Positions 35-30,373 of a DNA stretch of 64,000 bases are shown one piece after another (position 1 is the stretch's first letter; each line of letters begins with the position of its first letter). This DNA is from Trichoplax sp. H2. Taxonomy: Eukaryota. The stretch spans positions 1-64,000 of the forward strand of contig NOWV01000182.1 of the NCBI GenBank assembly GCA_003344405.1. Direction: 5' to 3'. A program made the translations under genes and the position numbers. Under the pieces are notes generated by a model. The model saw nothing but the letters and a program-made list of their open reading frames with translations, was not told where the DNA came from and searched no databases.

Positions 35-1277
35 CCACCAGCCAAGCAACTACAAAATTACCCAACACAACTCCAACACAAACTCCGACTTCAGTCGCTA
101 CAACTCCAACTCCGACTTCAGTAGCTACAACTCAAACTCCGACTTTAGGAGCTACAACTCAAGCTACAACTCAAGCTACAACTCAAGCTACAACTTTAGG
201 AGCTACAACTCAAGCTACAACTCAAGCTACTACTCAAGCTACTACTCAAGCTACTACTCAAGCTACTACTCAAGCTACAACTCAAGCTACTACTCAAGCT
301 ACAACTCAAGCTACAACTCAAGCTACAACTCTAGCTACAACTCTAGCTACAAAACAAACTCCGACTTCAGGAGCTACAACTCAAACTACGACGTCAGGAG
401 CTTCTACTCAAACTTCGACTTCAGGAGCTACAACTCAAACTACGGCCTCAGAGGCTACAACTCAAACTACGACTTTAGGAGCTACAGCTCAAGCTACAAC
501 TCAAGCTTCGACTTCTGAAGCTGCAACTCAAACTCCACCTTCAGGAACTACAACTCAAACTACGACCTCAGGAGCTACAACTCAAACTCCGACTTCCGGA
601 GCTACAACCCAAACTTTGACTTCAGGAGCTACAACTCAAGCTCCAACTTTGGGAACTACAACTCAAACTACGACCTCAGGAGCTACAACTCAAACTCCGA
701 CTTCTGGAGCCACAACTCAAACTTCGACTCCAGGAGCTACAACTCAAACTCTGACTTCTGGAGCCACAACTCAAACTTCAACTCCAGGAGCTACAACTCC
801 AGCGCCTGCAACTTCGAACTCAGCAACTACGGGTAGGTCTAAGTAACTGTTTCTAGCTGTCTCGAGAATAGAACTAGAATGTTAGTCATAGTATTCTTTT
901 ATTGTAGTATTTTATCTTTAGGCAATTTTATACGAGTATATAAAACATTCGCGCAGCTTAGAGTAGGAGATTATATCCTTAATTGTATTGCTTGCATTTA
1001 ATTTTACAGTATTACTTGTATAACTTATGTAAATCAAATTTTTTCTACCAGTAACTGTATCTAATTGCTTTTTCTATATATCTTTTTTCACATTATCATA
1101 CTAGCATCAACAACTTCAGTCACATCTACTATGAATGGAACTACGAACAGTACTAATAGTCCAAATGCTACAGTATCTACAGGAACAGTAGATAATCAAA
1201 TTTCTGGCGCTTTAGGAAACAACTATAACATTCTATATATCTTGTTACTTGTAAAGATTGCTTTTTGGCATTCTTAA
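35..1277 (+). CDS. 3' end of a gene, probably an ADAM paralog ('ADAM-0'): Thr-rich mucin exon 35-832 plus terminal exon 1105-1277 with a GPI-type C-terminal signal
   Basis: Acceptor ctaacag|35, 798 nt open reading of ATTQ/TSGATTQTx repeats, donor G|GTAGGT at 832/833, acceptor ctag|1105, ending ...[28 protein letters not shown] at 1277. The last exon and 3'UTR are homologous to those of ADAM-A (10177-10530). The 5' exons lie outside the window, so ADAM identity is inferred. Confidence 0.8.
75..800 (+). repeat. Coding minisatellite: 27-nt unit (TSGATTQTx) with an internal expansion of a 12-nt unit GCTACAACTCAA (ATTQ)
   Basis: Directly visible tandem repeats. The 12-nt units dominate about 150-350; 27-nt units flank them on both sides. 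Confidence 0.95.
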
Positions 1278-3057
1278 ACGATTTCTCTAATACTAACTGT
1301 GTTCGATTTATCTATAACATACGATTTATTTGTCAAAAACATAGCAAATGTTTATTTTCGATTTTTAGGTAATTTATTGCAATTGCTTTACCGTGAGGGA
1401 TTATTATTACACTGTCATCATTTAATCATCGCTTAATTAGAAATTTATCCGTATTCGTGTTATACAGTAATCATTTTACTTCATCAAGGAAATTTTGTAA
1501 TATTCATTTCGTTTCATATCAATATGCTAACTACTAACCGCTGATTACATATCGTTAATTTCGTAAGAAAAAGCTTAAAAATACATATTTATTTGCATGC
1601 TTATCATTTAATAAAATGATTGTCGCTTGTCTTCTTCACTACGAGAAATATTTAGTAAATGCAGTATGTTATTCATTAAATATTTACCGCGGTTTAGTTC
1701 CAGAAACAATCAAATACGAGAAAACATAACATCTGCACATAAGAATATCGAATTTCACCTAGATAAAGGCGATAATATCCACCTACTACTGAAAGTAACA
1801 TCTAGTCGTCCCTGCAAATTCAGCCAAGAATTGAATGTCGTTTCGTTAAATTATTTAGCCTGAAATACAAACTATATCATTAATGAAAAACTATTAAGAT
1901 TAAATTTAAAGAAAGCTGTAAAATTCTGCTGCTGACCTATAAACTTAACTAATTTTCTATACTTCATTATTTTAATATACTGCATAGTGAAACGTAGAAG
2001 ATTAAGCTTAGAAAATGATAAGAAATTTATGATCACGTTAAATATTATAGAAATACGTCATTAGCCTTAAATTAAAACTTACAAGATCAGAGAATTGCAT
2101 TTGACAAAAATTTTAAAGCTCATCCAAGTTTACGCGTGTTAGAACTTCCCTCTCTTACCAACGATACTGCATATTCGTTGCGTTGCTGACGAATTAAGAC
2201 TCATAGCTTTATTTATTTAGCCTTATAAATATGTGAGGGTTTTAGCTATTATTAAGCTAGTTTCGTGAATTTCCCATTATTTACACAATTATATTCAGGC
2301 GAGAAGGTGGGAATATTATCAACTGCAGGTAAAATAGCAGTAACCGTGCTTGCAAAGTTGTTGCATCGCTCATACAGTAGCTATGTACTGTACTTTAACT
2401 GTCATAAAGCTAAAGCAATGTGACTACTGCTACTGAATGCAAGATGCTTCTGTACCATTTCTAGATCTTTTGAAGAATTGTAAAAATCTGTCTTGTACTA
2501 GACAGTGGACGCTTGCAGTAGTATAGAGTCTATATACAAGATAGATTGACGTACAACTTTTACCTTGAAAATAGGTTCCGTAGTAGAGGTAACATATCAA
2601 TATGAAACCATTCGGATCAATTTTATCTCGTCTGAGAATAAAAGAAATTGATACTAATTAAATTGATCTTAGAACTATCATTATGTGTGATTGATCATAT
2701 TCAAATTATAATTTACGCTACGTTTTTATCTAATATACCAGTTCCGCTGTGTATCTAGTAAAAGAGAATAGTTTGATACTGTAAACTATCATTATTTATT
2801 GGCTAATCAAAATACTGGTAAATGATCGCGAGCAGTTAATTTACACGAAATGGCTAACGAAATAATGTCTAGTCTTAAAAAGTTACTGTAAACTGATCCT
2901 CTTCATCTAGATATTTTTATTAAGCTGACTTAGAATTCAATTAATTGATGGATATTTAATCAAATTAGCGCGAAATACTTGAAGCAAAGGTCTGTCACTC
3001 TCAAAAGTAATTCGACACACCTACTGTTATTCCGTACTAATTAAATCTTTATTATAT

Positions 3058-4696: not shown

Positions 4697-7600
4697 ATGA
4701 TCACGCTGGGAAGTAGTAAAATAAAGAGCAAGTGCTATTCTCTCTGGCTAACTTTTATTTTGTCCCTGATATCACTGAATATCCTAACCGGTGCTAACTT
4801 AACCAAGGAACAAAAACAGCAACTACCTCATGGACTTCGTAGTTATCATTTATTTAAACCCAAAGTAACTATTAATGGAGGAAAATATCAGTGGCCAATT
4901 AAATCGCCAAATGCATCAGTCGATATAAATCTAAATGATGAAAAACTAACACTAGATTTACAACGTAATGATGGATTAGTCGACTACCATTTTCACCATA
5001 CCTATCAAGTTACAGGCCAAATGCGTCGCCAACGAGGCTTAACACAACCATTTTGCTACTATCATGGACAAATTCGCCAAACTGCAAAAACTAAGGTAAG
5101 GCCAATGACCTTGACTATGACCATAAAATCAGCACGCCATATAATTACTAATGTCTATAACTCAATTAAATATCCAGTTCATGGATTACCATTAAAGTGA
5201 TCATTTTATATAAGATTCGCAGCTACAGAACATATAAAATATTAAACTTTTATGATACTTCACATTCATATTACGGTTCGCCGATATAATTATTGTATCT
5301 CTCAAAGAAAATACTAAAAGTATGAATCGAAAATTTCTTAAAAGAAGAGAAAATATCTCAATCCACCTTCCCTTAAACCAAATCGTTCAAAATTAGCCGA
5401 CATATCTTGTCTTGATGCACTCATAATGTGAATAGGTTACTTGTAGTAAAATGATACCGTACATGATAGATCAATTTCATGAGGTTGCACAATACAGCAG
5501 ATAGAATGCGTGCTGTATTGCCATTTGCTGTAAGAGTATCAATAATATTTATCGGGAATTTCCTCAACTGTCAATGTTTTTGATAATATGACAGTGCTGT
5601 CTATACTGTCAAAATCATTGACAGTAGAGGAAATTCCTCAATATTTATTATTTTTACGGAGCTCTTAAGTCGGAGAGTGTATTTACTAAAGACGCTGTTG
5701 TAGACGCGGAAATCATTTTACTGTCAGCTGTTATGTATGTAAGAATACAGTAACCTGTTGTACTGCACCTAATGTGTTAGCATAAGATACGTTATTACGG
5801 CTATACTATTTAAATGCAGTAAATCCTAAATAAAAGAGACTTTTTAGTAAGCTTACTAGGAGGAGTGTATCAAAGTCCCTCGTGCTAACGTTAGCGACTA
5901 AGAGTGGAAATTCAACGTCAGCGATCACACCTCTTAGTGCTGACAAGTTATTGTCATGATAACTAGATCATGGTGCTACTCCATTTAATTAGGATATATT
6001 GTGTATTCGTGTGATAATTAATCTTATACATTCAATAGACTAATGGACTCATCTGTTTACTATCTTTCGACATTATCTTTTAATTAGGATTCACTGGATC
6101 ACGTTGCTGTCACCGCTTGTCGCGGTATTAAAGGAATATTTCACTATCATGGTCATGATTACGCCATAATACCTCTAGATGACCAATTACACGCTACCTA
6201 TCGTATCAAAGATCAAAAAGATCAAAGTAGTAATCATCTTAAGGAATTCCGCTGTGCTAGTAAGATTGCAAAATTAAATCCGGAAACTGAGAAATGGCTT
6301 GAAGATAGGAAAGCATTACATTTACGTCGTCGACGCGATGTTTTCACTGAAACTAAGTATGTAGAATTAGTATTAGTTAATGATAAGCGATCATTCGATT
6401 TCTTGAAAGGTAATTTAACCGTTGTGGAGACTCGTTCCATTCAGGTTAGTGCAGAAAATCAATATTTGATAGCTCACGAAATGAGATTTTCGTTAGTTAT
6501 GTCGAAACAATTTCTACATATAATGAGAATTAGTCCGTGCATGTATGTGCGTTTAAGTACTTTTAGCACATACTTCTGTACAGTATTATGCCAGTACGTA
6601 AGTAAAAAATTGTACAAGTAAAAGACTCGCGAGTATGACGAGAGTTGCTGGGGTCTTTAGTCTCGCAACAATTTACGTCTTACTTGAGTATGGTTATACT
6701 TTATTTCAATTACAGTTAACTATGATTGCTGACAACGTGCTCGACTGCGCTGTAAAATATTGTGTTGGTCTTTCATCACAAGTACAATAATACATACAAT
6801 CGCAATTACGGTTAGGGTTATAGGATGTACCTTTTTGTATGACAGTATCAAATTATGCTTTACCGAACTTTTTTACCTACTTTCCTGCACGTATGGACCA
6901 CCGTAGGTGTGCTAATACATTGAGCCTTTAAGATTCGATAGCTATGGCTATTTTTGTGAGCCCTTGACCTATGAACGTGTTTGTATGATTTTGACGGCTA
7001 TAGTAACTTGATCAATAGCAGTTACTACAAGTCACATATCAGCTTTCGTAGAATTGAACACATTTATTTTCATACTTGGAAAGAGTAATGATACATCCAC
7101 TATTTTATCCTATCATAAAATATAGAGTGTCTATAGTAATAGCAACTATGATCATTCTGAATATCTGTTGGCTTCATTAAAAATATACTGTAGAACTGTA
7201 ACAACTACTCGTATATTTTGCATAAATCTAGGTAGCTAATATCGTCGATTTAAGATATAAGTCAATCAACGTACGCGTTGCCCTGATGAGTTTAGTTACA
7301 TGGAGTGAAACTGATAAAATACTGGTTACATCAAATGCCTCTGCTACTTTAAGCAGGTTCGCCAATTACTCAAATGTTGTTTTGAAGAAATCCAATCCAT
7401 ATGATAACGCACAACTACTTACAGGTGTTAGTCTCACTAATAAAATTGGTAAGCCTTTTCAATGACACTAGTAATAACTGCAGCTGGAATAATCTTAATC
7501 GTAGCAAAATTTAGCTTTTAACGATAACAAGCTTATTACGGATCTCTGTATTTATTCAAGAAATTACTTTATTAATGAATATCTTCTATCTATTATATTC

Positions 7601-10331
7601 CAGGTATCGGCTATCTTTCAACTATGTGTTTACCTAATTCAGTAGGAATGGTCGAAAATACACTAAATGTGGAAGGTGTAGCTACAATCATGGCACACGA
7701 AATGGGCCATAATTTTGGCATGAATCATGATACGGGCAGAATATGTTCTTGCCCTAATATGCCAGTAGGAGTTACATCATGTATTATGGAAGCAGCATTG
7801 CATTCACCTTACCCGCAAGCATTCTCTAGCTGTAGCGTCGCAGACTTATTTAAAAGTTTATATGAAGGACTCGGATCATGTCTCTTTAATGTTCCTACAA
7901 AACTATACACAAATCCAGTTTGTGGAAATGGTTTTAGAGAATCGGGCGAGGAATGTGACTGCGGAAGCGTAAGAGAATGTAAGGATCGTTGCTGCAATGC
8001 AGCAACATGTAAACTGCAATCGTTTGCTGAATGCGCCTCCGGATCGTGCTGTGCAAATTGTAAATTCAAGGCTAGATCAACGTTATGTCGCAAAGCTACA
8101 AATGATTGTGATTTACCAGAATACTGTAGTGGAACATCAGCAGATTGTCCTGCAAATGTCGTCAAGCAATCATCGCTAACATGTGGTAATGGTGCCGGTT
8201 ATTGCTACAATGGAGCTTGCCTCACTACTAACGCACAATGTCAAACCTTATGGGGCCCCACTGGAAAGACAGCTCCTCAGATCTGTTGGGATAACCTCAA
8301 TAAAATGGGAAATGAAAGTGGCTTTTGTAAGAAAACCGATGCTGGACAGTTTATCGCTTGCACCGCTAGCAATGTTCAATGTGGTAAACTCCATTGTGAT
8401 TCGCAAGCCATTAGGCCCGTGATTGGTAATAGCTGGAATCTTTCAATAGCTGCTTTTGTTTCTAGGGTAAGATCGTCTTCTTAATGTTACTCGGCCAGTA
8501 TTACCTCTTATACGACTATCTTAAGCTAGGTGCCGTAAACTTGCGCATGATTGAATTAGTTTAACTTTAATGCTAACGTTATCTCTGCTAATACTAAATT
8601 TCTATTTGGATTGACTAATTATTATGCAGCCTGGAAAGTTAACTATATGCAAGAGCATTTCTGGGAACTTGGGATCAGACATCCCAGACCCAGGGATTGT
8701 TCTGGAAGGAACAAAATGTGGAGACAAAAAAATTTGTTTTGATAATGAATGTCGCAATATTAATTCCGTTATCAACATTAAGCAGTGCAACCCTATTGAT
8801 TGCTCCAATCATGGGGTAAGTAAAACAATCTGAATTAATCATATTATAAACAGATAATGTTTTAAAATTAAAAATAAACATTCACTTCACAGTGAGTCTA
8901 CTACTTTACGTTAGCACTTTTATTAATTAACTGACGGCTGATGTGGTAAGTCTTGAGGTTGGCCAGTGATAGTTTTCATAAAATGCAGCTCGCGCTTTGC
9001 TACTAGCTAATTGATTTTATTGAAGGTTGAACTGTACATGCATTAGGAGGGTAATTGAATGATCAAGTGAAGCAATGCCGAAGAGTTCTTTAGACTCTCC
9101 TTTTATAAGATTCTAGCTGGAATAGTAACGGATCGTTTTATATTATAGCAGCGTCGTACTATACAGATATTTAAGTTTACTATCTTGCTAGATACGATAT
9201 AGACAAGCATTTTGACTGCGTAACATGTTGATAATTTGTGATCTATGACTATTAAAACTTATAACTTATCTATTATTTTATAATTATCAGACATGAACAT
9301 TACGCTACGGTTCGGACCTAGTGTATTAGTGCAAAGATACACATATTTTAATGATTATTCGCGACAGCTAACATTATCAATGTGCTGATACGAGCGGCTA
9401 CTTAGCCATTTTCTTCACGACAGAAATGAAATTAGTTAAGGTATTGTATGAATTCTTCGTTATAGATTTGCAATAGTAACGGAAACTGTCACTGTGACAA
9501 TGGTTACGCTCCACCATCATGTAATCAACCTGGCAACGGGGGCAGTATTGATAGCCATGACCATAATACCTTACCGACCGCAACCTCAGGTAAGATCGTT
9601 CTTAAACAATATCAAGTTATATTGTACTTACGGTAGTAGCACTTAGCTGGTAGAGATCGATGGATATCTTTATTTTTTTTAATTTCTTATAGCTTAGTTG
9701 GTTTCATTGATAGTTTTAGTAGTAACAATCGAAATCCTTCTCATAATGCTAGCCAGGGTAGCCTTATGAACGTCTCCTAATCTATCCTTAACGTAGTATC
9801 ATGATCAATCGGTTACTTATTCTTGTCTTGTTTTAAGTCTTACTAGTGTTGATTTTCAGTAGACAAAGTTCTTATGATACCTTATAATCTGAATTGATGT
9901 CTGCTCTATACTAGAATAGAAGCTCTTCCAATTCAAGAATAACAATGTTACACGTAAAAGTGATCAAATTACAATTTCTTAATTCCTCTGCGCAACTAGA
10001 GACAAGTTTATAAATTACAGTAAACATTCGTATGGCCCAGAGTAGATCATATCTTTAATTGTAGTACTTGAATTGAATTTACGGTATTGCTTATGAACCT
10101 TATCCAAATCAAATCTTTACTTCCACTAACCGTTTCTAATTCTTATTTCTATCTATCTTTTACGCTGCCATGCTAGCACCAACATCTAGTACAACGCCAA
10201 CCTCTTCAGTGAACGGAAATAGTACAATATTGACAGTAACAAAAGATCATGAAATTTCTCGTGCTATGAGAAGCAGCTATAACATTCTATTCATCGTGTT
10301 ACTTGTAAAGATTGCATTTTGGCATTCTTAA
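4697..10331 (+). CDS. ADAM metalloprotease 'ADAM-A' (signal, pro, reprolysin, disintegrin, Cys-rich, EGF, short S/T stalk, GPI-type signal), about 766 aa, 7 exons
   Basis: Exons 4697-5095, 6088-6444, 7232-7448, 7604-8466, 8630-8815, 9466-9589, 10177-10331; all GT-AG, total 2301 nt in frame. Motifs: prodomain FCYYHG, furin site [16 protein letters not shown], zinc motif [12 protein letters not shown], Met-turn CIM, CGNG..E.GEECDCG, disintegrin [31 protein letters not shown]. Confidence 0.93.
5541..5652. repeat. Imperfect palindrome of about 110 bp (foldback/MITE-like) in ADAM-A intron 1
   Basis: Left arm GGAATTTCCTCAACTGTCAATGTTTTTGATAATAT pairs with right arm ATACTGTCAAAATCATTGACAGTAGAGGAAATTCC. 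The centre GACAG-TG-CTGTC is itself palindromic. Confidence 0.75.
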
Positions 10332-10699
10332 ATGGTTTCTCTAACATTAGTTATATTTAGTTTCTCTAAAATACATGATGTAAGTGTCAAAAAGATTGCA
10401 CATGTTTATTTTTAATTTTTAGACAATTTATTGCAATTACTTTACCAATCAGGGATCATTATTATCACACTATCATCATTTAGTTCGAAATTTATCCCTT
10501 TTCGCCTTCTGCAGTAATCGTTTTACTTCATGTAATAAATAAAGCACTACCCTTAGCCCTACTCTAAACTAGTCACCCAATAATATATAATTAGTTTTAC
10601 AATGTAGCGGTTAAAAGTAGTTTATTCTTCAAATCTTGCTGAATATTGCGGTAATAAAGCTCTAGACTACGCAAACTACACTTGGCTAGCTTTCAGGCA

Positions 10700-11400
10700 C
10701 AGTTTATCGACTGCATTGTCTTCTCATGATGACAGCCTTTTATACCCTTCTTCATAGCATGTTTGCCTAATCATTCTCCCTGATCAATTCGTCTGCAAAC
10801 CTATTGTAACTTAATGTAGTCTCTAGTTTCCCTTCATTACTGATATGGGTGCTGCAAGTGGGAGACTCTTTCGCGACTGTAGGTATGATTGTCCTGCCTC
10901 CCTTTTGAGCCAATCGTACACAAGTTACTGAGGTACGCTGATTCCGCCTGCCGAGGCAATCTCACGTAACTCCTGTACTGTACAGTTGTCGTCTCATTAC
11001 AAACAGCGTCCAGTAAATTGTTGTAGGCAGTTGTCTTTTTGCACTACACAGTGCCAAGGTCAAGGACTACTAAAATAGTTCCAATTGCTTGACTATGAAT
11101 GTTCCCTAAAATCAAGATTAATTTACAGTTGCAGCAATAATAGACAGCAGTCATTAATCCTTGATCATGTGAGAGTGTGGTGGGTCACTTTTCTCGTGCA
11201 GCAAATATATATTATCCAGTAGCACAACGCAATACAGTATTCTCTGAAGGTTTCTCTTCTACGATGCATTTACACTTAGTGCGACAAACTTCTCTAGTGC
11301 GGCGTGAATTGCGTATTCTGCGGCACATTTGCTCTCTGTGCGGCTACGAACTTCTCTTTGGTAGTCTTTGCCTGCTTGGTACAGGATGACGACCGTAACT
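10700..11400 (-). mobile_element. Decayed Crypton-like (DUF3504-type tyrosine recombinase) transposon relic
   Basis: GC-richer island. Minus-strand translation across frameshifts and stops gives colinear motifs EKFVAAQRANVPQNT (~11350-11311), LCYW..YIFAAREK (~11228-11190), YNNLLDAV (~11027-11002), RQLYSTGV (~10991-10968), PRQAES (~10956-10939) and IGSKGRQDNH (~10914-10885). These resemble my recollection of Crypton YR motifs (VPKNT, LxYWL..FxxExRK, LDAxMKxLxxxG, KQAEP, FGLRGxxEH). Boundaries are approximate. Confidence 0.5.
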
Positions 11401-12658: not shown

Positions 12659-15600
12659 ATGAAGGTTTTTCGTGCTATTGCCTTGACTCTATGGTGGGTC
12701 ATGCATTTGGCAACGATACCGAGTTATGCTGATCTGCTACAACAACAATCATTTCCTTCTTTGTCACATAGCAAAGACAAACATCATTCATTTATTCCTC
12801 GTCTTCAAGTCGATGGAGTGGAAACTCACTGGCCATTAACATCTCCTACAGTAACACTGTCGATTGATTTCTATGGGCAAGAGTTAATCATCGATTTAAG
12901 ACGAAATGATCGATTAATCCCTGAAAACTTCCATCATACTTATCAAGGGAACGATGAAACAGTTCGCCATCAAGGTTTATTTCAACCCTTTTGCCATTAC
13001 CATGGCAGGATTAGAGCTTCTACTAGCCACCAGGTAGTAGCCTTAATGAATCAACTTCAGGCATTCAATTTATTTAATCATTACTGCAATAAAGTAATTA
13101 TGCTCATAAAAACGAGATCTGAAGGAGAAATCGATTCGCTCTTCCAGTATACAGTATAGTGTGTAGCCAATCCAATAATCTCGATCAATTACCATATTTC
13201 GAACTTTATCCTTAAACATATATGTTAATAAACAAGTAAACAGTCTGTAACTTGTCAAGTTTTCGACATTGAAAAATGCCCATTTGTATTTCCGAACTTG
13301 AAATTACTATAACACGGCCATTAGCATATTTTCTCATCACAGCCGGCAGTTCGATCATTCATTTTTACTTTTTACCATGACTCCATGCTCGCAATGTTTC
13401 ACACATACACTACATCAAAGCTAATTTTCACCACAGTCTACTCGTACTATGTAAATACTGCACCAGTTCTTCTTTTTCTAGCTCGCTTTCAGTATATTTT
13501 ATATTATCATCCATGACAGGTTATCATCCGTGTTATTAACTCCTTTCTACTGCACTGTAAACAATTTCACAGTTATTTTTATACCTTGACTATTGATTTA
13601 TGACATTTGCAAATACTAGAATTTACAAAATAGACCGTCGTCAGTGGAAAGAAATAGACTAATATTAACTTCTAATGGTTGATTAGAATAATAGTTTACA
13701 ATTGGTAAATACAATTAGATTAGATACTATAATACAAATACGGGAAGAAGCAACGCGAAATTGAAACTACGTTAGAACAGATAGGCAAGTGCGAATGATT
13801 TCGACTATCAAGTTTGCAATAGAACTTTTCCAAACGGAAACTTGAAACCAATCAGTTATTAGGTGTTGGTTAAAAAGCGATCGCAAATATTGTATACGCC
13901 AACAATCATTATTAAAAGTGAGAATTTGCGTTGGGTAACAGTACTCTGAACTGCTATGTATGTACTCTAGAATACTAAGGCTAATTCTTAGCTGACATCT
14001 TAAATTTAATGTAAGAGGCGATATCATTTGCTTATGCTGCTCTTTACACCCTATTCAATCACACCTTTCTAGCAATAAAACTTGCTACCTAATATCCTAT
14101 TGAACAAATCGAAAATTTTCCGTTACAACAAATAATGAAGAAAATCTGAATATTTTTATCTTCCTTTACAATACTGAGTTGATCACGACAACACATCAAC
14201 TGTCGCTTTCACCAAAAACAATTTCGACCCCCTTTTTGACAAATGATATCCTCCAAGAGCCAAGATTCGGGTAGGCCCGTACCCTATGGAAGGAATCGGT
14301 ACTGGAAAGGATTTGTACTGTACGATGAAATCATCCTATCAAAATTAAAATATTTCACATACGTATTGACAAGGATAATGCCCTTAGTTACCTATAATTA
14401 AATTGTTGTCGATTGATCAATGACAGATTTTAACACAATATTCTCACAGGGTGTACATCCGCATAAGAAAAATGACTACTCGCAGTTTACAGTCGCTTTA
14501 TTAAATTAGTATAAGCAATAGTAAAGTAGCAACGAATTCGCTTTCAAGCACTTTCCAACTCCGTAGCAGCACTACCAATAATACAAAAGTTTAGAGACGT
14601 TATATGCAGGCATGCATTACTCTCTCGATATAATGTAATGTTATATAGTGTTCTAATGCTACATTGAAGTAAGCGTAGCAACCTCAAATGTGCCTTATTA
14701 GTGGATTACAGTAAATTAATTTTTTTATACTATGAGTATGCTATTCCTTGAATAATTTAATCATTCTATTGCTTTTTCCATTGGAAATAGTCACAAATAG
14801 ACAACGCGGCCATCAGTGCTTGCCAAGGTATTTCAGGCGTCTTTCAATACAAAAATCGAGATTACGGCATCAAACAACTCAACGATAAAATTCATAGCAT
14901 CTATCCTTTAAGTGATCTCTACAGCAAGCTCAACAATCCAGGTAAACCTTTGAAATTGATTGACAAGATCCACACCAGTAAGTACAATAAACTGCCGATT
15001 CAACAAGAGAACAATCACGCTCGTCAACGGCGGAATGTTTTAAGTCAAACCTTGTATGTAGAAATGGTTGTAGTCAATGATAAACGATCATACGGATTAT
15101 TTAATAATATCACCGCTGTAGAGAGCTACACTATCCAAGTAAGTATTCAAAGCTAACCGAATTGTTATTATTTTAATTTTCAGGGCAGAATAAATATTTG
15201 AACCATCCGTACTCTCATCTGTAAATTAAGCATAATGACTCAACACCTAAGTAAATACAATTATATGACAGCCACTTCATTCTTACCGTTGGTAGTAATA
15301 TATCACACGCTAATAGTAATTTTGAATAAGCTAGACAATGTCCAGCGTAGATATCCACAAGGCAAAAACGAGAAACTCTTACGTGGTGGTAGCTTGATTT
15401 TTACCCTTCGCTATAGCAATATTCATTCATACAACTAGTTAATCGCTGCAAAATCATTTAGACACACATAGCTGACGCTTTTGTTTTTGTTTCGTATCTA
15501 CTTTATCACTGTATTGCTTTTATAACCATCATCGACTGTTCATTTGGTTTCATGATTACCTTACTACGAATTTAATTCTAGGTAATTAACACGGTGGATT

Positions 15601-17987
15601 TACGCTATAAGGCTATTAACGTTCGCGTTCTACTCGTTGGCATTGTTACCTGGTCACAGCAAGACCAAATTAACGTGACTGATAGTGGAACTGCTACCCT
15701 AAGTCAATTTTCAGATTATGCTATTAAAACCTTACGATTAACAAATCCCTACGACAGTGCACAATTATTCACTGGTATCTTCCTTAAAAATGAAGCAGGT
15801 AAGAAAAATGACTGTATGACAGGTTACTCCATCGTATACCGTAAGTAGCAAGTCCTGACAAGCCAATATAAGCTTAAATGTTGATTAATTATCATGACCA
15901 TTCTCAATATAGGCTTAAATATTGATTATCATTACCATTCTCAGGTATTGCCTATCTGTCTAGCATGTGCTATGGTAATTCCGTAGGTGTTATTGAGAAT
16001 ACTCTCAATATTCCCGCTGACACTATCGTCTCAGCGCATGAATTGGGCCACAACTTTGGCATGGATCATGACAACAGCCGCCACTGCTCGTGCACATTCC
16101 AACCAGCCAATGCTACCAGTTGTATCATGGCTGCTATGGTCAGCCAGCCTTATGCGCAAACTTTTTCAAACTGCAGCGTCGCGGAAATGAAGAGTGGCCT
16201 TTCTCAAGGATTAGGATCATGTCTATGGAATATTCCAACTAAATTATTTACTAATCCAATATGCGGTAACGGTATACGAGAAACCGGAGAAGAATGCGAT
16301 TGTGGCTCACCAGCAGAATGTACAAGCAATTGCTGTAATGCCTCAACATGTAAATTGCATGCATCTGCTCAATGTGCAACTGGTCCTTGCTGTTCTAACT
16401 GTACATTTAAACAGAGATCGACACTTTGTCGTGCTGTAAGCAATGATTGCGATCTACCGGAATACTGTAGCGGAAATTCTGCTGAATGCCCAACTAATAT
16501 ATATAAGCAATCATCAACTAACTGTGGAAATAACACTGGATACTGCTATAAGGGGGCTTGCTTTACAGCCAACGCTCAATGTCGTCTGTTTTGGGGATCA
16601 ACTGGAAGAGAAGCGGATAATTTATGCTGGAATATACTCAATACTCGAGGAAAGCCTGAAGGTTACTGCCAAAGAATTGCCAGTGGTCAGTATATTCCAT
16701 GTGCCCCAGCTGATATTAAATGCGGAAAGCTGCAATGCGATTCTTCAACTAATTACCCACTTATTGCAATAATTGGCAACATAACTATAATATCATTTAC
16801 GCAGGTACAGTAATTTATAAAGTCATCCATAGTATTCGCCCAATAAATTTACTATGTACGAAAATCAATTCGCCAAACTAAATTCCATATATAGCCTAAT
16901 GTACGCTTCCAACTTTGAAATTAGGGAGCAGTAACATCATATTGTAAAAGCTTCACTGCCGATATAGGCGATAGCACTCAAGACCCTGGATCAGTTTTAG
17001 ATGGCACTAAATGCGGTAATCAAAAAATTTGCTTCAAGCAGCAATGCCGAAGCATCACGGCAGTATTAAACATTACACAATGTGATCCAGCTGACTGTTC
17101 CAATCATGGGGTAAGAATTATTTAACGATTCTAATTCATACTTTTATCAGCATAGCAAGTATTGGCAGGACTACACAAGAAATACTTCACCCCGCCATAT
17201 CCCTCTTTTGTATAGGGGATAAGGATAGTGCTGAAAAATTTCTTGAATGGTCCCTGGTGCCACTCAACATATTATACTGTATCATCCGCACTATCATTAC
17301 TCGGATATCACATCTGCTTCATTTCGCTGCTGCTGTATGTAGATATGCAATAATAAAGGACATTGCCACTGCGATTCTGGATATGCTCCTCCTAACTGCA
17401 GCAATCCTGGCAATGGAGGCAGTATAGATAGTCATGGAAATTCTACCGTTGCAACAGCTACAGGTAAAATTTGGAGAAGAACCAGCTTGTCCTTGTATCT
17501 TGAAGCTATTTTCTTTTAAGTAGTTCTCAGTTATATTTATACACTAATTCACACGTCATTGTTCTAATTATCGTATACCCTAAAATGTGATATTATTGCC
17601 TTATAACATATTTGTATTTTATTTACGCTTCATCGCTCTTTGCCTGCGATTTATTTAAATCGACTAATGAATGAATCTACGTAATCGGATTTCAAAATAT
17701 CATTGATTTGGTATGTTGTACTCACGAGCTGAAAGCATGCATTGGTTCCATTGAATTGGATTTAGCTACAGTAGCATCACAGATTCAACTATATGTTAAA
17801 TTTAATCCGCTTGTTTGTAGAATTATTTCTATTTTATTGATAAAAGTTTTTCTTCAAAATTTTCAATCTTATAGATCTCGTCGTTATATCTCCGTCAGCA
17901 ACTACACCAAATGGTACAATACGAAATCAAGGCATTCAAAGCATTTATCTAACACTGCTGTGGTTTGCACTATTTCTGTTGATTTAA
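12659..17987 (+). CDS. ADAM metalloprotease 'ADAM-B', about 739 aa, 7 exons, very short stalk, GPI-type signal
   Basis: Exons 12659-13033, 14791-15138, 15582-15798, 15945-16804, 16925-17110, 17343-17463, 17875-17987 (2220 nt in frame). Signal peptide MKVFRAIALTLWWVMHL, furin site RQRR|NVL, HELGHNFGMDHD, CIM, CDLPEYC, EGF, C-terminus ..TTPNGTIRNQGIQSIYLTLLWFALFLLI*. Confidence 0.92.
15865..15944 (+). repeat. Tandem duplication of about 40 bp at the 3' end of ADAM-B intron 3
   Basis: AATATAAGCTTAAATGTTGATTAATTATCATGACCATTCTC followed by AATATAGGCTTAAATATTGATTATCATTACCATTCTCAG. Confidence 0.8.
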
Positions 17988-18032: not shown

Positions 18033-19094
18033 CTTTTATCCTCATTCCGATGAATTTGGAATCGGGCTAAAGTAATCACTTAAATATGTGTAGTACTGTG
18101 TAACAGTTTTATCCTAGCTTTGGTATATATTCATATCAAGTATTGTAGAAGTGCTAGATACCCCATGGATGTACTAGAGTTTCAAATAAAACAGTAAATT
18201 TAATAACTTTACTCAGTAACGATCTAGCTACTACACAGTACACGGTATAAAGTTACTGAACCTCTGACAGGTCTACGACAAATGGTAATACTATCTGTTA
18301 AATGAGCACATTATCGTAAACCGTCAGCAAAGCGACGGGAGTTTGCACTAGTATATTTTCAAACTTGCTAGACCCAAGCATTACACAGTACACGGTATAA
18401 AGTTACTGAACCTCTGACAGGTCTACTGAGTACGACAAATGGTAATACTATCTGTTAAATGAGCACATTATCGTAAACCCTCAGCAAAGCGACGGGAGTT
18501 TGCACTAGTATTCATTATTTATACGCATCATTGAATAAGCCATTTTCTCTTGCACCTCAATCACTGCAACAATAAAATTAAAAGTGTTAATGTTACAAGA
18601 TGCAATACGGCTATTTCTTTCTTACTTTNNNNNNNNNNNNNNNNNNNNCTTTTATCCTCATTCCGATGAATTTGGAATCGGGCTAAAGTAATCACTTAAA
18701 TATGTGTAGTACTGTGTAACAGTTTTATCCTAGCTTTGGTATATATTCATATCAAGTATTGTAGAAGTGCTAGATACCCCATGGATGTACTAGAGTTTCA
18801 AATAAAACAGTAAATTTAATAACTTTACTCAGTAACGATCTAGCTACTACACAGTACACGGTATAAAGTTACTGAACCTCTGATAGGTCTACTGAGTACG
18901 ACAAATGGTAATACTATCTGTTAAATGAGCACATTATCGTAAACCGTCAGCAAAGCGACGGGAGTTTGCACTAGTATTCATTATTTATACGCATCATTGA
19001 ATAAGCCATTTTCTCTTGCACCTCAATCACTGCAACAATAAAATTAAAAGTGTTAATGTTACAAGATGCAATACGGCTATTTCTTTCTTACTTT
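18033..19094. repeat. Near-identical sequence on both sides of a 20-N gap (18629-18648); probable uncollapsed haplotype overlap
   Basis: 18033-18628 matches 18649-19094, except that the left copy carries an extra ~150-bp internal duplication (18232-18354 / 18383-18511). Confidence 0.85.
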
Positions 19095-19764: not shown

Positions 19765-19930
19765 CGAAAAGTATAAAAGCATGCAACTTTAGATTATTTC
19801 AGTTAGTTCGTTGTAGAAGTCATTAGTAGTAGTATTCGGCTATAGTAGAACTGTGTGCAGTTAATCTTTGTATGAGATTCATTAAAGCCCTTATTTTTCT
19901 AAAATTTGGAATCTCGTGATTGGTATATAT
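19765..19930. repeat. Dispersed repeat, copy 1 (copy 2 at 48876-49038)
   Basis: AAAGTATAAAAGCATGCAACTTTAGATTATT...AAAGCCCTTATTTTTCTAAAATTTGGAAT.TCGTGATTGGTATATAT is shared between the two loci in the same orientation. Confidence 0.85.
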
Positions 19931-22066: not shown

Positions 22067-25000
22067 ATGCAGATTGCGTCAAGAAATGAAATTCTTGTCT
22101 ATGCGTATTTGATTGTGATCTTATCTAGCGCATTATGTACTTCAGCACAAACTTCTAGATTAACTAAAAAACAACAACATTATTTGCGATCTCAAGGTAT
22201 AGTCAATTATTACGTCTTCGAACCGTACCTGGAAGAGAAAAACCAACCCATTACATGGCCATTGACATCACCAAAATCGTCAATTACTCTTGATTTCTTT
22301 GGTTCTGAACTAACATTTGATCTGAAATTAAACGATGGTTTACTAAGCCGCCATTTTCACCACACGTATCAGCAAGGCCAAGATAAGAAGCGTGTAGAAG
22401 GTTTATCGCGTCCATTTTGTTACTATCATGGTCAAATTAGACAAGCAGAACATGTAAGTAAACCATTCACATTTATGCCATCTTGAATCATAATCTAAAA
22501 CGTGGCATACGTTAGCCATAATCACTAGTTCGTACATTGTTTCAGTCTTCAAATCGCACGATGAAAATACGAACATTTTGTAGGACCAAATCAGTGGAAT
22601 GACCAAATAAAATATAGCTACACTTACATACCTATATAAGGAATAATCGATCAACACGATATTAAATTGAACATGTTAACAATGAATACATTTCATCCCC
22701 ATCAGTTTAGCCTCAACTGAAAAAATAACTCATCAGAGCGATAAACAAGAATGGGATGTAAATAAATTCCTTGCATAACAACATCCATATTGAATAGTTA
22801 AATAACATGTTATCGTAGAAGTAATAAATTCATCACTGTATCCATGCTAGGCAATTAGGTACCGTACATACACTTTAGTCATTTTCCAATCGATTCACCA
22901 TCAAGTTTCTCCAGTATCATGATAAAAATAAATAATCCTATACTTATTGCTGAGTTATGCATCTGTATAATACTCGACATACAGTTGAGTAGCAATCCTA
23001 ACAAGATCGAGTCTTATCCACATGTATATGAGAATCTACTGTACTGTGTACTGTATACGTGCTGTATAGTCAAGAGTATTTAATGACTGGGACTGCAAAA
23101 AATATATTCACCACATACATACCATCCATAATTCATAATCGAACAACATAAACCTGCTTGTCAGAGGGACTAAGTCACAGTTAGTAAAAAATCAAATAAT
23201 GACCCATTTCTGGAACTAGAAATTGAATTCCAATCACATCCGTGTTGTATGTTGATAATCTTATCGCTACTGTAATTGATGGAAGCAATTTTCATTGGAT
23301 CCATTTCCAACGATAAAGTTAATTAATGAATCTTAAACAAAACTGTTTTTCCATACCCGTACTAGGCAGTGGGGTATTTACTTACAAAATTACCCAGAAT
23401 AACTACCGTACTATTCATGCATATCTTCATAAATTATAGTTAGACACGATTTTATTAGCGATAAGAATTGCAAAGGAACAGGACTTGTTCATATGCATTT
23501 CTATACTTTTGACTCAACTAATTTCTCATCACGGCTTGGATAAGCAAAAACAAGTTTTATTCATTGCATGTTTCCATACTGTAAGATCGAACGATAATTC
23601 ATAACTAAGACTATAAATTGTAGTTAAACCTAATCAATGCAATTTTATACACGTCCAATGTATATAATATGTTTAGTGTAACATATATGATGCATAATCT
23701 AATAATTTCTTTCGACCGGAACGAAATAAATCTATATCATATACGCTTATACAACCGATAAATAGCGAAATAATATCTTGTTTTCAGAACTGCTAGAGAA
23801 AGTTGGAAGTACATGCTGTATATTAACACTTCCAGTATTTAGAGGAAGTCTATGTATGTACAGTAATACAAATGAGCCTTCATCGTATACTGCAATAGAA
23901 GAAGCATCCTTACAGATATCATTAAATTTGTTTTATATTTCTAAATCTATTTCTGTTTATTCCTTATTTGTAAGACTCAAGATCATGTTGCTATAGCGGC
24001 ATGTCGGGGATTAGAGGGAACATTCGAATATCGTGGAAAGAACTATGCAATTCTACCTGTTGATAACCAAATTCATATCCTTTATCGCCAAGAGGACAGC
24101 CATGACAGTTTAAACGATTTTACTCGACAACATCGATGTGATTATGCTGTTGCAGAGGGGAATGATGATAGGCGTAAGATGATGCAAGAACAAAGGCAAG
24201 CCAGTCATCAACGCCGACGTCGTAATGCTCTTAACGAAACCAAATATTTGGAATTAGTTTTAGTCAACGATAAGCGATCTTACGATTTATTTAATGGTAA
24301 TTTGGCAACACTGGAAAGTCATACTATTCAAGTAAGTACGATGATTTAATAGCCTAATTATACAGTAAAACTAATTTCTCATACGTCTGGCTTACGCTTT
24401 TTGACCCGATTACATTGCCTCCATGAATTAGAAAATCTGATCAATTTTGAATAGATTAGAACATTAAGTATGATTAGGTTACATATGAAAAATTTTGAGA
24501 TTCTCCTCCCTTAATCATTTTTATTATCTTTCGAGCTTAAAAAATCAATTATAAACCCCTATCACTATGTACATTAGGAAAATCACGATATTAGATATTT
24601 CAGATAAGCACTCTTAACTGTAGTCAACTATATCATAATTAGTATTCGGCTTTTAATCAAACCCGCAGCTTAGTACTATTTCATTGTTGATATGATGCGA
24701 TAAATAATTTAATTACCTGAACTTCAAATAATTTTTTATTCGGATTTTAATATATACGCATAATCTAATAAAATAAAAGGCAATTACCCGAATAAACAGC
24801 CTGAAATAAGACCGATTTATTGACAGAAAAGATGTATTCCTGTAAAAACCAGTGTTGGAGCTGATTACTCATTAGCATAAGCCACAATATGTTTCAAGTT
24901 TTTAAATTCTTGTTACATGCCTCTCAACACCGTTGCTAGAAATAATACCATAAAAATGACTAAATTTACTCATTATAAGAAGTCTTTAAAGGTCAAATAG

Positions 25001-28000
25001 TCATTGACGCCGACTAAAAGCTAATTCGAGCGCTACTATTCTATGATAACGCAAACATCCTCATTTTAACAATTATCATCGCCAAAGGGTAGATAGACTA
25101 TTCTATCCCATTTGAATAGCTTTAAGTTAAGGCCTATTCAATAATGATGACTCAGATAACATTGAGACGATAGTTATTGAAAAGGCTATCTTAAATGACA
25201 GTATCACTTATTATACCGTGAGAATTAATAAGAAATAAAGTAATGCAAGGATAGACGGTTTGGCGTAAACAATGCAAATTATTATTATTTAAGCTCTTTC
25301 TTCTAGCATTTAAAGATTGATTTTCAGATTGATTTTCAATTTTCGGTAAAGCACTCCATGCTCATTATTAAGTCAAGTCCGAACGAAGTATAATTAGTGA
25401 ACGTTGTAAATCTTTCATTGATGACAATGTCCGATTAAGCATTTGTCCTCGACTCAATGGGCACCCAATTGTACGGAAAAGGATTTATTGATCTAATTAA
25501 TAGATAATATAGAAGTCTGATGCCTAAATAATGCAATGTTCAAAGACAGTTCTTTAAATAACATCAATTTATAATCTTAACTTGAAATGATTATGATTAA
25601 TCTTTATGTCTTTTATTTTTACTGATTTATTTTACTCGCTAATGTAGCTATTGTAATTAATGAATCGTTCTTCTAAACTTTTGGATAAGTTTAATTATAT
25701 ATAGTTACACTTTATTTATTGAACGTAGATATAGATTTGATCGTCTTATAGGACTACTAAGGATGATAGCACTATTAATTGCAACTCAATATTACTCTAG
25801 ATTGCTAATGGCGTTGATCTACGTTACAAAACCATTCAAATTCGTGTAGCATTAATTGGTATCGTTACATGGTCTGTGCAAGATCCAATTACAGTCACGG
25901 CAGACGCTTCGGCAACACTAACCAAGTTTGCTAATTATTCACGCCTAGTCTTAAAATCTATTCATGCTTATGATAGTGCTCAACTCTTGACTGGAATCAG
26001 TTTAACCGGAAAATCAGGTAAGTTTATTCTCGATACAATATTTGATAGTAGTAAACAACGGCAAAGAAATTTGATTTAATAGCCTTACCGAACCAGTTGA
26101 ATACCGTATTCATCTAGTAATAAGTGCCATACTACTCAAACGACCACTGGTTCAGATCTGCTAAGGAATAGAATTATTTTTTTTCTAGCTGCACCGAGCT
26201 TCCAAGTTGCCAATAATATTAATTAATTATAAGTGATCTCTCTTTCTACAGTCAACATTACTAGCAAATTCAGCATACACTTATAGTATAGTTTATGGTA
26301 GAAAGCAACTGTAAATCTCCTTTTTACAATAGTTCATGCTTTGATGTCTTCTCTGTTTTGCTGTATCGATCGATAACTTTTCAAACCACTGCCCAACGAA
26401 AAGGCAGACATATATTTTATGCAAGTGTACGCTTATACGTGCTCGAGTCATGAAAAATTTCCGGTATCTTAGATCATCTTATTATCAGTTGATATTTTAA
26501 CATCGGCGATATTTTGTTACTCTATTAAGTATTCAAGTCAATGTCAATTAAATTAAATATAAAATAGCAAGGAAAGTGCACGTTACAGGCTCTAGATAGC
26601 GAATCAATCGCCTATAGCTTTACTAAAATGCAAATTCTATCTTAACTAAAGCGCTTTTTATTTCATACATTTATATCTATTGCATCTTACTTACGTAGCC
26701 AAACTTCTTAAGAAATTTGTGCCATATCGGATTTCACTATCTATCTCCTCACTCCTTTAAATTATGATTTAATACCCAACCTATCTCCCCGCAATGCCTG
26801 TCACTTACATCAATATACTAATGAAATAAATGTATTCGGTTTCATGTATAATATAGTATTGATAGTTACATTAGAACTGATATAGCTAAATCAGCCATGA
26901 CTAATGTATAGGTGGAAATAAAAATTTGAATTGCCAAAAGTAGCCAAAATGAAACAGTATGCTATTTATTCTATCTAGGTCTAGCCTATGTCTCAACTAT
27001 GTGCCTATCCAATGCAGTGGGTATTTCCCATAACTCCAAAAATGTTGATCAAGTTGCCGCTATCCTTTCTCATGAAATTGGGCACGTTTTCGGTATGAAT
27101 CATGATACTGGACGAACTTGCACCTGTGTTTATAAACCTAGTAGTGCCAAGATATGCGTTATGTCTGGTGTACTCTCGCAGCCCTATCCGCAATCATTTT
27201 CAAGTTGTAGTGTTGCAGATTTAAATAAGAGCCTACAGGAAGGATTAGGCTCCTGCTTATTTAATCAACCTACAAAATTAGCAACAGCACCAAAATGTGG
27301 TAATGGATTCGTTGAAGTAGGAGAAGAATGCGATTGTGGCTCGGTAGCAGAATGTACTAATCAATGTTGTAACGCCACAACGTGTAAACTCCGTGCTTCA
27401 GCAAAGTGTGCTTCAGGTCCTTGCTGTCATAATTGCCAGTATAAAGCAAAATCAATACTCTGTCGTGGAGCGATCAATGACTGTGATCTGCCAGAATATT
27501 GTAGTGGTAAGTCAGAATTATGTCCAGCTAATATGGTAAAACAAAATGCGCTACAATGCTCCAGAAATACTGGTTATTGCTATAATGGGGCATGCTTAAC
27601 CATTGATGCACAATGTCGAACACTATGGGGACCACATAGTGCAGATGCAGCTAGTATTTGTTGGAATCGGCTTAATGTTATGGGAAATCAATATGGATAT
27701 TGTAAGAGATCTAGTAGTGGAGCTTATACTGGCTGTAGTGCAGCCAATGTTCGTTGTGGTAAACTACATTGCTGGACTAATGCTTCAGCGCCAGTAATAG
27801 GTGCTACTTGGAGATTGGCAACAGTTACATTTACTCAGGTAGTGGAGAAGAAGATGTATTAGAATTAAATTTTATGTAATAAATTTAGCTACCTTGACCA
27901 TTTCATATTAAAATTGAAAGTGATCAATTAAAACCATAACTAATCTATTTCTACTCTCAATTGTAATTTAGGGAAGCACTCAAATACCATGTAAGAGCAT

Positions 28001-30373
28001 TTCAATCGATTTAGGTAATGATATTCCTGATCCAGGTATTGTCATCGATGGAACCAAATGTGGTCAAGAAAAGATTTGCTTTAATAATGAGTGCCAAAAT
28101 ATAAAATCAGTCTTAAATATCAAAGAATGCAACCCAGCTAACTGCTCTAATCATGGAGTAAGGATTACATTTATAAGATATTGAAAACTCTCATTTCTAT
28201 CGGATAGTAGAATCTGATAATAAGAAGTCACGTTTAGTATTCTACACTTTCATTCATTGAAATGCACCATGTTTCTACTATGATGATAGAAATTTTTCAT
28301 ATATTTATTCTCCAAATTAGATTTGTAACAGTAATGGCAATTGCCATTGCAATGCTGGATATGCTCCTCCTGATTGTAGCCAATCAGGTAATGGCGGTAG
28401 TATTGACAGTCATGGAAATCAAACAACTGTAAATCCTAGTGTAGGTTAGTAAAATTTCCGTCCTTTGCTAGTAATCAGATATTTATGTAGAATCCTGTAT
28501 AATCGTAACCTTCTTGCACAATTGATTTCCTCCAGTGCCTAGCCAAGTCGTTTCCTCATCGACATCAACCGTCACAACATCACAGCAAGGTAGCTTTAAA
28601 ATATTTCATATGTATTAGTGAATGATGCGGATTGGTTAATATTCTAATTGAACTACTTCTTCATTAATACTTCATGTATAAATTTAAGTCTTTGTACCGT
28701 AATACCGTACTAAAGTAAGGTAGCTAAATACTATTTTAAAAAATTCTTTAATTTTATTTATTTGCGGTCTTTCAGTTTCTTCCAGCCAGGTCCTATCTTC
28801 ATCTATATCTACTACATTATCGTCGCAGCAAAGTAAGAAAGGGAATAAATATAACTAGATTACATCCTATAATGCGTAGCATTAAGAATGAATAGAGTAA
28901 CATTAGTTCATGGAAATGTTGTTGGATATTATCTCACGGAATAAGTTTTCTGTAGTTACTCTAGAATACGAGTTTACCAGAAGTTTCATAGTTAGCATCA
29001 ACATGAAAGATTAAATATTTAATCCAACGGCTTTGAGGCTTCTATTCCACTCTTTTTTATTTATCTGCATTTGCAGCACCATCGTTGCGAGTAGATTTGG
29101 ATGCCGTAAATCAAATGCCTACATTATGCGTATACTATGCATCATTCTCGCGATAAATCAGCTATGACCATTGGATACAGCATTAAATATTTATCTTGCT
29201 TACGTCAGATATCTCTGTAGTGTGATGCGGCGAGTTATGTGCAAATTTATTCTTAAACTTACCATCTTTACTCACAAATTATCTATCAAAAACACAATTT
29301 AAATATTGTAAATTATTTCAGCTATTGCTCAACTAATGGTTGATCTTTTTTGTTGAAGCCTCTAGTCAAACGACTACCAGTTCTTCCATTTCAGTAACAT
29401 CATCTCATCAAAGTAAGAAGCCAGGAATTTAATTGCGTTTCCTATTAGGATTGATATCTAAATTGCTATTTCTTGTTAAAATGAAAGTCAAATTTACATC
29501 ATTTTAAGTTATTGCTGAGAGCAATGCAGAAAATTTAAATATAACAGTCTTGAATATTTACAACAACCTTTGAAAATCAGTCAGCACTAATTAAAAGATA
29601 ATTTGAACTGTTTTAGCATCTTCTTCATCGGTTCATCAAACTACTACAACAAGCTCAGTCATAAGTACATACACTACAACTTTGCTTCTTTCACAATAAT
29701 TAGAGAAAAAATAATATATATATAGTTCATTAACTGGTTTAAAATCACTTCTATTTACTACAGCATCAACTCTATCCCCTACAACATCGCAAAGTACAGG
29801 TAGGCCACTAAATGTTAATTTCGTTGTCATTCTACTCTAAAATGATTGTCAACTCCTATTTTAGCCACAACAGGAATTAATCCTACTAAGGCTACGTCTA
29901 GTGAGCCAGCAACATTCACTAGCTCTACCTTTGGTAAGTACAAAAATTTAAAGATACATTACCTTACTATAAAACTGGTTGAGATGACTATGATCATTAC
30001 TGTACCGGTATAGTAAATTTACTTGGCAATTGCATCTATTTCTTATAGATTTATCACTAATCTTAACATCAGAAGCTATCACCAATCAATCGGGTAATTT
30101 ATTTGAGTGAAATTAGAATATATTCCTTATTAAAAATAATTGCTTAGTATTCTGGTGTTGGTTGTACTTAATACTCTTTTTATAATCTGCTGCTTTCGCA
30201 CATCTATAGAACCAAATGGTACTTTGGCCAATTCGGATGCGACACCTACGATACAGCCAAGTCCAAGTGGAACATTATCAACAGAAACCAGCGATGCAAT
30301 CAAACTACAGCATCAATCAATGTGGATCCCATTAATCATGACTTTGTTAACTCTATTGATATTTAAGCCATAA
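22067..30373 (+). CDS. ADAM metalloprotease 'ADAM-C', about 885 aa, 14 exons including seven Ser/Thr-rich stalk microexons, GPI-type signal
   Basis: Exons 22067-22453, 23975-24331, 25801-26017, 26979-27838, 27972-28157, 28321-28444; microexons 28536-28589, 28776-28832, 29359-29412, 29617-29664, 29764-29799, 29865-29933, 30049-30093; last exon 30210-30373 (2658 nt in frame). [33 protein letters not shown]-terminus ..[30 protein letters not shown]. The microexons are less certain than the core exons. Confidence 0.9.

Follow-up and report, generated by a model that had tools for sequence, protein, structure and literature searches.

ADAM proteases are defined as type I membrane proteins, in which a transmembrane (TM) helix and a cytoplasmic tail steer trafficking, activation and substrate choice. 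The DNA analyzed here, a window of 64,000 nucleotides from Trichoplax sp. H2 (contig NOWV01000182.1, positions 1 to 64,000 of the forward strand), carries a tandem, head-to-tail array of ADAM genes on the + strand, consisting of the 3' end of gene A and the complete genes B, C and D, whose products end in a short hydrophobic stretch. How would such proteases be held at the cell surface? An ADAM ectodomain, followed by the layout of a glycosylphosphatidylinositol (GPI) signal and by no well-spliced exon for a TM helix plus tail, makes a GPI anchor the best reading, and we give a probability of about 0.58 to the array products being GPI-anchored, catalytically competent ADAMs.

ADAM genes of the array

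The gene structure, domain content and catalytic motif of the array were read directly from the DNA, which in this window is AT-rich (GC content 0.29-0.37) and intron-bearing. The introns of B, C and D are all GT-AG, and no internal stop occurs in these genes. The features are listed below, in order along the window, with S/T-rich standing for rich in serine and threonine and aa for amino acids.

35..832, + strand: gene A (TRIADDRAFT_32380 ortholog), mucin-like stalk exon, 266 codons, phase 1-1, in an open frame at 1-846
1105..1277, + strand: gene A, last exon, an S/T-rich stalk and then a GPI-type signal at about 1203-1274 (S-G-A, spacer, hydrophobic end, stop)
4697..10331, + strand: gene B (TRIADDRAFT_64349 / RDD38337.1)
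4697-5095, 6088-6444, (6716-6781, annotated extra exon), 7232-7448, 7604-8466, 8630-8815, 9466-9589, 10177-10331, + strand: gene B, exons, giving 766 aa without the extra exon and 788 aa with it
10257..10331, + strand: gene B, GPI-type signal (S-R-A, spacer, hydrophobic end, stop TAA)
12659..17987, + strand: gene C (TRIADDRAFT_61393), 7 exons, 739 aa
12659-13033, 14791-15138, 15582-15798, 15945-16804, 16925-17110, 17343-17463, 17875-17987, + strand: gene C, exons, the sole exon combination that gives the H1 JGI model P0003 exactly
17910..17987, + strand: gene C, GPI-type signal (N-G-T, spacer IRNQGIQS, IYLTLLWFALFLLI, stop TAA)
22067..30373, + strand: gene D (TRIADDRAFT_32445, a truncated H1 model; second half of the fused H2 model RDD38338.1), 12 exons, 851 aa
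22067-22453, 23975-24331, 25801-26017, 26979-27838, 27972-28157, 28321-28444, + strand: gene D, exons 1-6 of the spliced model
28536-28589, 28776-28832, 29764-29799, 29865-29933, 30049-30093, + strand: gene D, five S/T-rich phase 1-1 mini-exons of 36-69 nucleotides
30210-30373, + strand: gene D, last exon of the spliced model
30290..30373, + strand: gene D, GPI-type signal (S-D-A, spacer, hydrophobic end, stop TAA)

Five members make up the array in the H1 reference (TRIADDRAFT_32362, 32380, 64349, 61393 and 32445). The ectodomains of the paralogs are 60-80% identical, genes A and B share about 80% identity across exons and introns, and the S/T-rich stalk differs widely in length, from about 15 aa in C to about 280 aa or more in A. 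Coordinate 35 is the AG acceptor that starts the mucin exon of gene A, the remaining gene lying upstream of the window. This exon consists of S and T at 53% of its residues, contains tandem repeats of 27/54 nucleotides at 74-799, and has a sole strong donor at 832 (score 11.5, phase 1), which fits the last-exon acceptor at 1105 in a phase identical to that of the arrangement in B. An A-like gene on another contig (H2 model P0285) encodes the tail of A with one residue changed. As for the complete genes, the translation of B with the extra exon equals exactly the C-terminal 788 residues of the H2 model P0282 (RDD38337.1), with 8 mismatches to the H1 protein over this length, while residues 31-851 of D are identical to part of the H2 model P0287.

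By homology, the array genes are ADAMs (MEROPS M12B) of the ADAM12/9/19, meltrin-like type. A search with the large exon of gene B, which spans the catalytic to cysteine-rich domains, returned 1895 proteins at E <= 0.001 among 2168 candidates; it matched Trichoplax adhaerens TRIADDRAFT_64349 at 100% over the exon, other Trichoplax ADAM models as well, and ADAM12 of fishes, sharks and mammals at 47-50% identity. Pfam domains in B, C, D and the A-like protein are Pep_M12B_propep (PF01562), Reprolysin (PF01421, E 1.7e-45 to 7.6e-92), Disintegrin (PF00200) and ADAM_CR (PF08516), the last two above their cut-offs, together with a borderline EGF_2 match (21.4-26 bits against a cut-off of 22.1). The zinc motif HExGHxxGxxHD is intact in B, C (HELGHNFGMDHD) and D, and also in the A-like proteins P0002 and P0285, so that these Pfam matches and this motif bear out the claim of an earlier note on this DNA, namely that the array encodes ADAMs with intact catalytic motifs. 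A furin-type site precedes the catalytic domain (RRRR in B and D, RQRR in C). The N-termini of B, C and D, judged by eye as signal peptides, have a basic n-region and a hydrophobic stretch of 12-15 aa; P0285 has a signal-peptide-like N-terminus too, that of A itself lying outside the window.

Two features inside these ectodomains vary among the genes. The extra exon of gene B at 6716-6781 (66 nucleotides, 22 codons) is present in both the H1 and the H2 model and missing from the A, C and D models examined. It lies within the beginning of the catalytic domain, and its AG/GT sites score moderately; with it included, the Pfam Reprolysin match does not begin until profile position 30. This could reflect a genuine insertion or a prediction error common to both models. 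As well, comparison of exon 2 of gene C (14791-15138) with the corresponding exons of B (6088-6444) and D (23975-24331) revealed a second prodomain Cys in B, D and the A-like protein (..FRCASK.., ..HRCDYA.., ..YHCASE..), whereas C has no Cys there. Judged by eye, this is probably the place where a cysteine switch would be expected, and the product of gene C might be activated differently.

C-terminal ends and the predicted GPI signal

The layout of the C-termini and the absence of a TM helix plus tail are direct observations as well. The four C-termini quoted in the earlier note are present letter for letter in the frames 1065-1277, 10140-10331, 17844-17987 and 30140-30373, with gene C, for instance, ending in NGTIRNQGIQSIYLTLLWFALFLLI before the stop. 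Each tail consists of an S/T-rich stalk, small residues, a polar spacer of 6-8 aa, 14-17 hydrophobic residues and 0-3 trailing residues, the omega/omega+2 positions being S-x-A in A, B and D and N-G-T in C. No TM helix followed by a cytoplasmic tail can be recognised, as had been claimed, and the textbook ADAM feature of a single TM helix with such a tail is absent from the array proteins. When measured uniformly, the hydrophobic segments are 15-18 aa long, against a median of 26 in 111 ADAM representatives with a tail. The tails stand after an O-glycosylation-type stalk, a usual place for a GPI signal.

According to a passage of PMC9997660, a GPI-attachment signal is made of a hydrophilic spacer of 5-10 aa and 15-20 hydrophobic residues, and compared with this description the proposed layout held, with all four tails passing a home-made rule. 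The rule asks for small residues at omega and omega+2, a non-hydrophobic spacer of 5-10 aa, a hydrophobic part of 10-20 residues with at most one charge, and no more than three trailing residues. The last exons of A and B can be aligned with one in-frame gap of 18 nucleotides in the stalk and with four mismatches in the final 55 aligned columns before the stop, against a mean identity of 84%; omega and omega+2 are conserved, and the hydrophobic part shows only the conservative exchanges Y/F and L/V.

Several observations on these tails weigh against a GPI signal. The rule alone is passed by 59 of the 886 six-frame open reading frames (ORFs) of at least 30 aa in the window (6.7%), and downstream of B alone three different stops yield rule-positive ends; at such a pass rate the rule by itself is weak, and we rejected it as proof. 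In AT-rich DNA, random frames abound in I, L, F and Y, and a reader with a hypothesis could pick GPI-like ends among them; it is this risk that was measured. In addition, a Lys lies inside the hydrophobic stretch of the A and B tails, and the C tail has only 14 hydrophobic residues and carries Thr, a less favoured residue, at omega+2. When an S/T/P-rich stalk is added to the rule, five of the 886 ORFs are left, three of which are the tails of A, B and D, the other two being a read-through of the EGF exon of C and one minus-strand ORF; the C tail passes the basic rule and fails the stalk criterion.

The Lys in A and B and the 14 residues of C, at or below the 15-20 given in the passage of PMC9997660, would also suit a hydrophobic C-terminus that is real and is not a GPI signal, acting instead as a short tail-less anchor or as a poorly processed end of a protein that is secreted, retained in the endoplasmic reticulum (ER) or degraded. 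We consider this explanation unlikely, because small omega residues and a polar spacer stand ahead of each hydrophobic end, and the layout recurs in three tails which share no sequence. Moreover, a stable type I anchor would usually be longer than these segments of 15-18 aa, which fall below the ADAM TM median of 26 and have 0-3 residues behind them.

From the C-terminal layout we infer GPI attachment, surface location and release. In the GPI-anchored form, the proteins would enter the secretory pathway as zymogens with a signal peptide, a prodomain with an RxxR site, and reprolysin, disintegrin, cysteine-rich and EGF-like domains, followed by the S/T-rich stalk, presumably O-glycosylated, which stands before the GPI signal. 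The GPI transamidase of the ER would cleave at the small omega residue (S, S, N and S in A-D), and the ectodomain would be transferred to the GPI lipid. The active protease would then sit on the outer leaflet of the plasma membrane, mounted on a mucin-like stalk; having no cytoplasmic tail, it would be under no SH3 or kinase control, and it might be released by phospholipase or by shedding.

The 3' ends of the gene models

The reading of these tails further depends on whether the modelled 3' ends are the true ones. The public H1 and H2 gene models, built without the GPI hypothesis, share these stops (C in H1, B and D in H2, and the A-like gene in P0285), and the H2 annotation as a whole is described in a part of PMC6057997 as made by MAKER with Trinity and Cufflinks transcripts. 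The five symmetric S/T-rich exons of D, at 36-69 nucleotides, would be unusual as ab initio output and are therefore taken as support for the 3' end of D. The frame of the mucin exon of A is beyond doubt, and its donor at 832 leaves one base, which is the phase required by the last exon. Three RNA-labelled runs contain 0.39-0.49 of the sampled words of 7600-17560, where the coding sequence of B and C makes up 34.5%; this fits transcription of B and C, is silent on the last exons, and is not counted as support.

Within the limits of what sequence can show, the earlier claim that there is no visible downstream TM or cytoplasmic exon is borne out. Among downstream peptides of at least 25 aa, an in-phase single-exon continuation with TM helix and tail was found in 0 of 36 for B, 0 of 33 for C and 0 of 29 for D, and a TM stretch plus at least 10 aa was reached by none of the 3126 splice chains of A, the 105 of C or the 30 of D. 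An AATAAA lies 110-330 nucleotides past each of the four stops, the one downstream of B being at 10534 and the one downstream of D at 30482. The similarity of A and B ends about 200 nucleotides past the stop, adjoining the AATAAA of B, and no ORF similarity was found among the four downstream regions in any of the six pairs compared. Less than 1 kb separates D from the next gene, a convergent ionotropic glutamate receptor (iGluR) gene on the opposite strand from about 31.3 kb.

These results bear on the possibility that the 3' ends are mis-modelled and that the main transcripts continue to unrecognised TM and cytoplasmic-tail exons, and there are also observations which speak for it or against a GPI-anchored product. 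On a home-made position weight matrix (PWM) trained on 15-18 splice sites, the last-exon acceptors score 2.9 (A), -2.5 (B), 2.9 (C) and 0.8 (D), against 4.2-11.4 in the 15 training acceptors. Downstream of B, 26 of 1737 splice chains reach a TM-like stretch in the ORF 11298-11435. The H2 model P0287 (RDD38338.1, 1562 aa), an annotation error that fuses C and D, tracks C for 731 aa, departs from it inside the hydrophobic tail and enters D inside the signal peptide. Another annotation error concerns the A-like model P0285, which appears to be a chimera joining two tandem paralogs, about 230 residues being repeated in it. GC content did not separate the last exons from introns. Finally, a search of the protein collection with the 50-aa tail of B found only the genome-model cluster P0001 (1 of 275 candidates), and among these 275 there was no transcript-derived protein and no other placozoan.

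Even so, we regard continuation to such exons as quite improbable. The two annotations concur on the stops, paralogs with 60-80% identity in their ectodomains have neither sequence nor ORF in common downstream, A, C and D give no TM chain, and each stop is followed by a nearby AATAAA, with D in addition closely confined by its convergent neighbour. All 26 chains of B through 11298-11435 bypass the annotated exon, with poor mean site scores of about 5. As the PWM ranks annotated acceptors low and its top chains miss two annotated mini-exons of D, it was trusted for donors only.

A different possibility is that GPI-type and soluble forms are both made through alternative terminal exons, with the soluble form perhaps the main one, as vertebrate ADAM12 and ADAM9 have L and S forms made in this way. 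In silico, in-phase alternative terminal exons for secreted forms exist in D (30566-30600) and in A (from acceptor 922, score 6.6), which count against the GPI-anchored form as the main product, and their acceptors outscore the annotated ones. These exons are AT-rich (28.6% GC in D against 39% in the annotated exon), encode no S/T-rich sequence and do not occur in the public models, and we hold it improbable that both forms are made; such exons would in any case be compatible with GPI-anchored ADAMs rather than opposed to them.

Similar ends in other ADAMs and in known systems

A survey of metazoan M12B-plus-disintegrin proteins, which the earlier note had proposed, was run on 153 ADAMs, comprising the best 150 of 5140 relatives together with P0001, P0003 and P0006, and it found GPI-like ends outside placozoans. 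Of the 153, 109 have a hydrophobic segment with 12 or more residues after it, 32 have no hydrophobic segment in the second half, and in 12 the segment lies within 12 residues of the end. The same kind of end as in Trichoplax is found in the glass sponges Vazella pourtalesii (P0208; Trinity transcript P0269) and Oopsacas minuta (P0212), in the homoscleromorph sponge Corticium candelabrum (P0006), and in P0154, which is 797 aa long and has a long mucin stalk. P0260 (909 aa, a Logan record) combines an ADAM ectodomain, cysteine-rich repeats and a hydrophobic end with a weak Quiver/Ly-6/uPAR-like match just before the tail, which is sub-threshold (22.2 bits against a cut-off of 27.3); it would be an ADAM fused to a typically GPI-linked module. 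With the same end in three sponges, P0154 and P0260, the description of the array ADAMs as a lineage-specific family was wrong as stated. The GPI rule was also applied to 116 further matches of the search with the large exon of B, most of them vertebrate ADAM12, and is passed there by the Corticium protein alone.

Seven other proteins tripped the C-terminal filters and were set aside, namely P0242 (Drosophila 'adm-2-like, partial'), P0204, P0225, P0233, P0246, P0253 and P0266, the grounds being a partial model, intron read-through, a TM helix with a 9-aa tail, or an unconvincing end.

On a quick, unrooted FastTree tree of 151 rows without taxon names, which shows scatter and not direction, seven changes are needed for the 10 GPI-like rows, among them the doubtful Drosophila partial protein and a nearly identical pair of rows from Vazella. 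Of these 10, nine fall, alongside 21 rows with TM helix and tail, in a clade of 37 (starred on the tree), which contains the Trichoplax ADAMs and in which several tails are Pro-rich. It is conceivable, at somewhat less than even odds, that a GPI anchor has served non-bilaterian animals since early on, and repeatedly, as a second means of mounting meltrin-type ADAMs on the cell surface, with a tandem family in placozoans and single genes in at least two sponge classes. If so, lipid-anchored, tail-less, releasable ADAMs on mucin stalks would belong to the early animal surface-protease toolkit, and the bilaterian form with TM helix and SH3-binding tail would be only one of two anchoring solutions.

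Among known systems, the canonical meltrins ADAM12, ADAM9, ADAM19 and ADAM33 resemble the array proteins in their domain order from signal peptide to EGF-like domain, their zinc motif and their furin site. However, they continue into a TM helix and a cytoplasmic tail, whereas the Trichoplax proteins have an S/T-rich stalk and a hydrophobic end of 14-17 aa at the stop; by homology these are bona fide ADAMs, and their tails are a departure from the textbook 'TM plus cytoplasmic tail'. The sponge proteins P0208/P0269, P0212 and P0006 are alike in their full Pfam ADAM architecture and their C-terminal hydrophobic end, with zero residues after the stretch by the window measure, and all of them pass the GPI rule. 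They differ from the Trichoplax ADAMs in that their tails are unrelated in sequence, their mucin stalk is short or missing, and they are not joined to the Trichoplax array on the tree; their database names do not describe GPI anchoring.

ADAM ectodomains without TM helix and tail are also known from ADAM12-S, ADAM9-S, ADAM28s, ADAMDEC1 and the snake-venom P-III metalloproteinases. These soluble forms end hydrophilic and are secreted, while the Trichoplax ADAMs have instead a hydrophobic end after small residues. MT4-MMP (MMP17) and MT6-MMP (MMP25) are metzincins with a GPI anchor where their relatives have a TM helix and a tail. They offer the closest working analogy, with GPI-anchored members beside TM members of one metzincin family, although they belong to family M10 and not to M12B, have no disintegrin or cysteine-rich domains, and had their GPI anchoring shown biochemically, whereas that of the Trichoplax ADAMs is predicted from sequence. 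GPI-anchored MMPs are mentioned in a part of the review PMC5187769.

The earlier note knew of no GPI-anchored ADAM, and likewise none that is natural was found in the open literature, with subscription journals and supplements outside the search. The phrase 'GPI-anchored ADAM' occurs in the same part of PMC5187769 in a loose sentence only, with no natural case there, and a preprint to which the phrase led concerns engineered red blood cells for ADAMTS13 deficiency and not a natural ADAM. No paper was found that names the locus tags TRIADDRAFT_64349, 61393 and 32380, and the main text of two placozoan cell-type papers makes no mention of ADAM, metalloprotease or GPI. The proteins are already public as 'uncharacterized' or 'ADAM 12/9', and the novelty lies in how their ends are read and not in the genes.

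If this reading is right, a catalytically intact ADAM ectodomain would work without a TM segment or a cytoplasmic tail, in the outer leaflet, probably on the apical side, with release by a lipase, and it could be compared with the MT-MMP family, in which both anchor types coexist. Trichoplax digests food outside its body through one epithelium, and a tandemly expanded family of surface proteases on mucin stalks could plausibly be part of this external-digestion interface, which is speculation, as are the roles in mucus remodelling, external digestion and defence that were proposed earlier for the array ADAMs.

A sixth Trichoplax ADAM, P0288 (RDD36268.1; ortholog of TRIADDRAFT_1282), lies on another scaffold outside the array and has an S/T-rich stalk of about 160 aa after the EGF-like domain, its model being partial at the C-terminus. 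In the window itself, Rfam and tRNA scans gave no matches. The intergenic region between C and D contains, at 18033-19094, repeats of 250-330 nucleotides with 97-99% identity on both sides of an N run (18629-18648), and a 166-nucleotide element at 19765-19930 recurs with 92% identity at 48876-49038, directly after a second N run (48856-48875); the N runs beside these repeats are probably repeat-associated assembly gaps. Finally, the minus strand at 31300-63100 carries three tandem iGluR genes, convergent with gene D, whose exons match ANF_receptor, Lig_chan-Glu_bd and Lig_chan.

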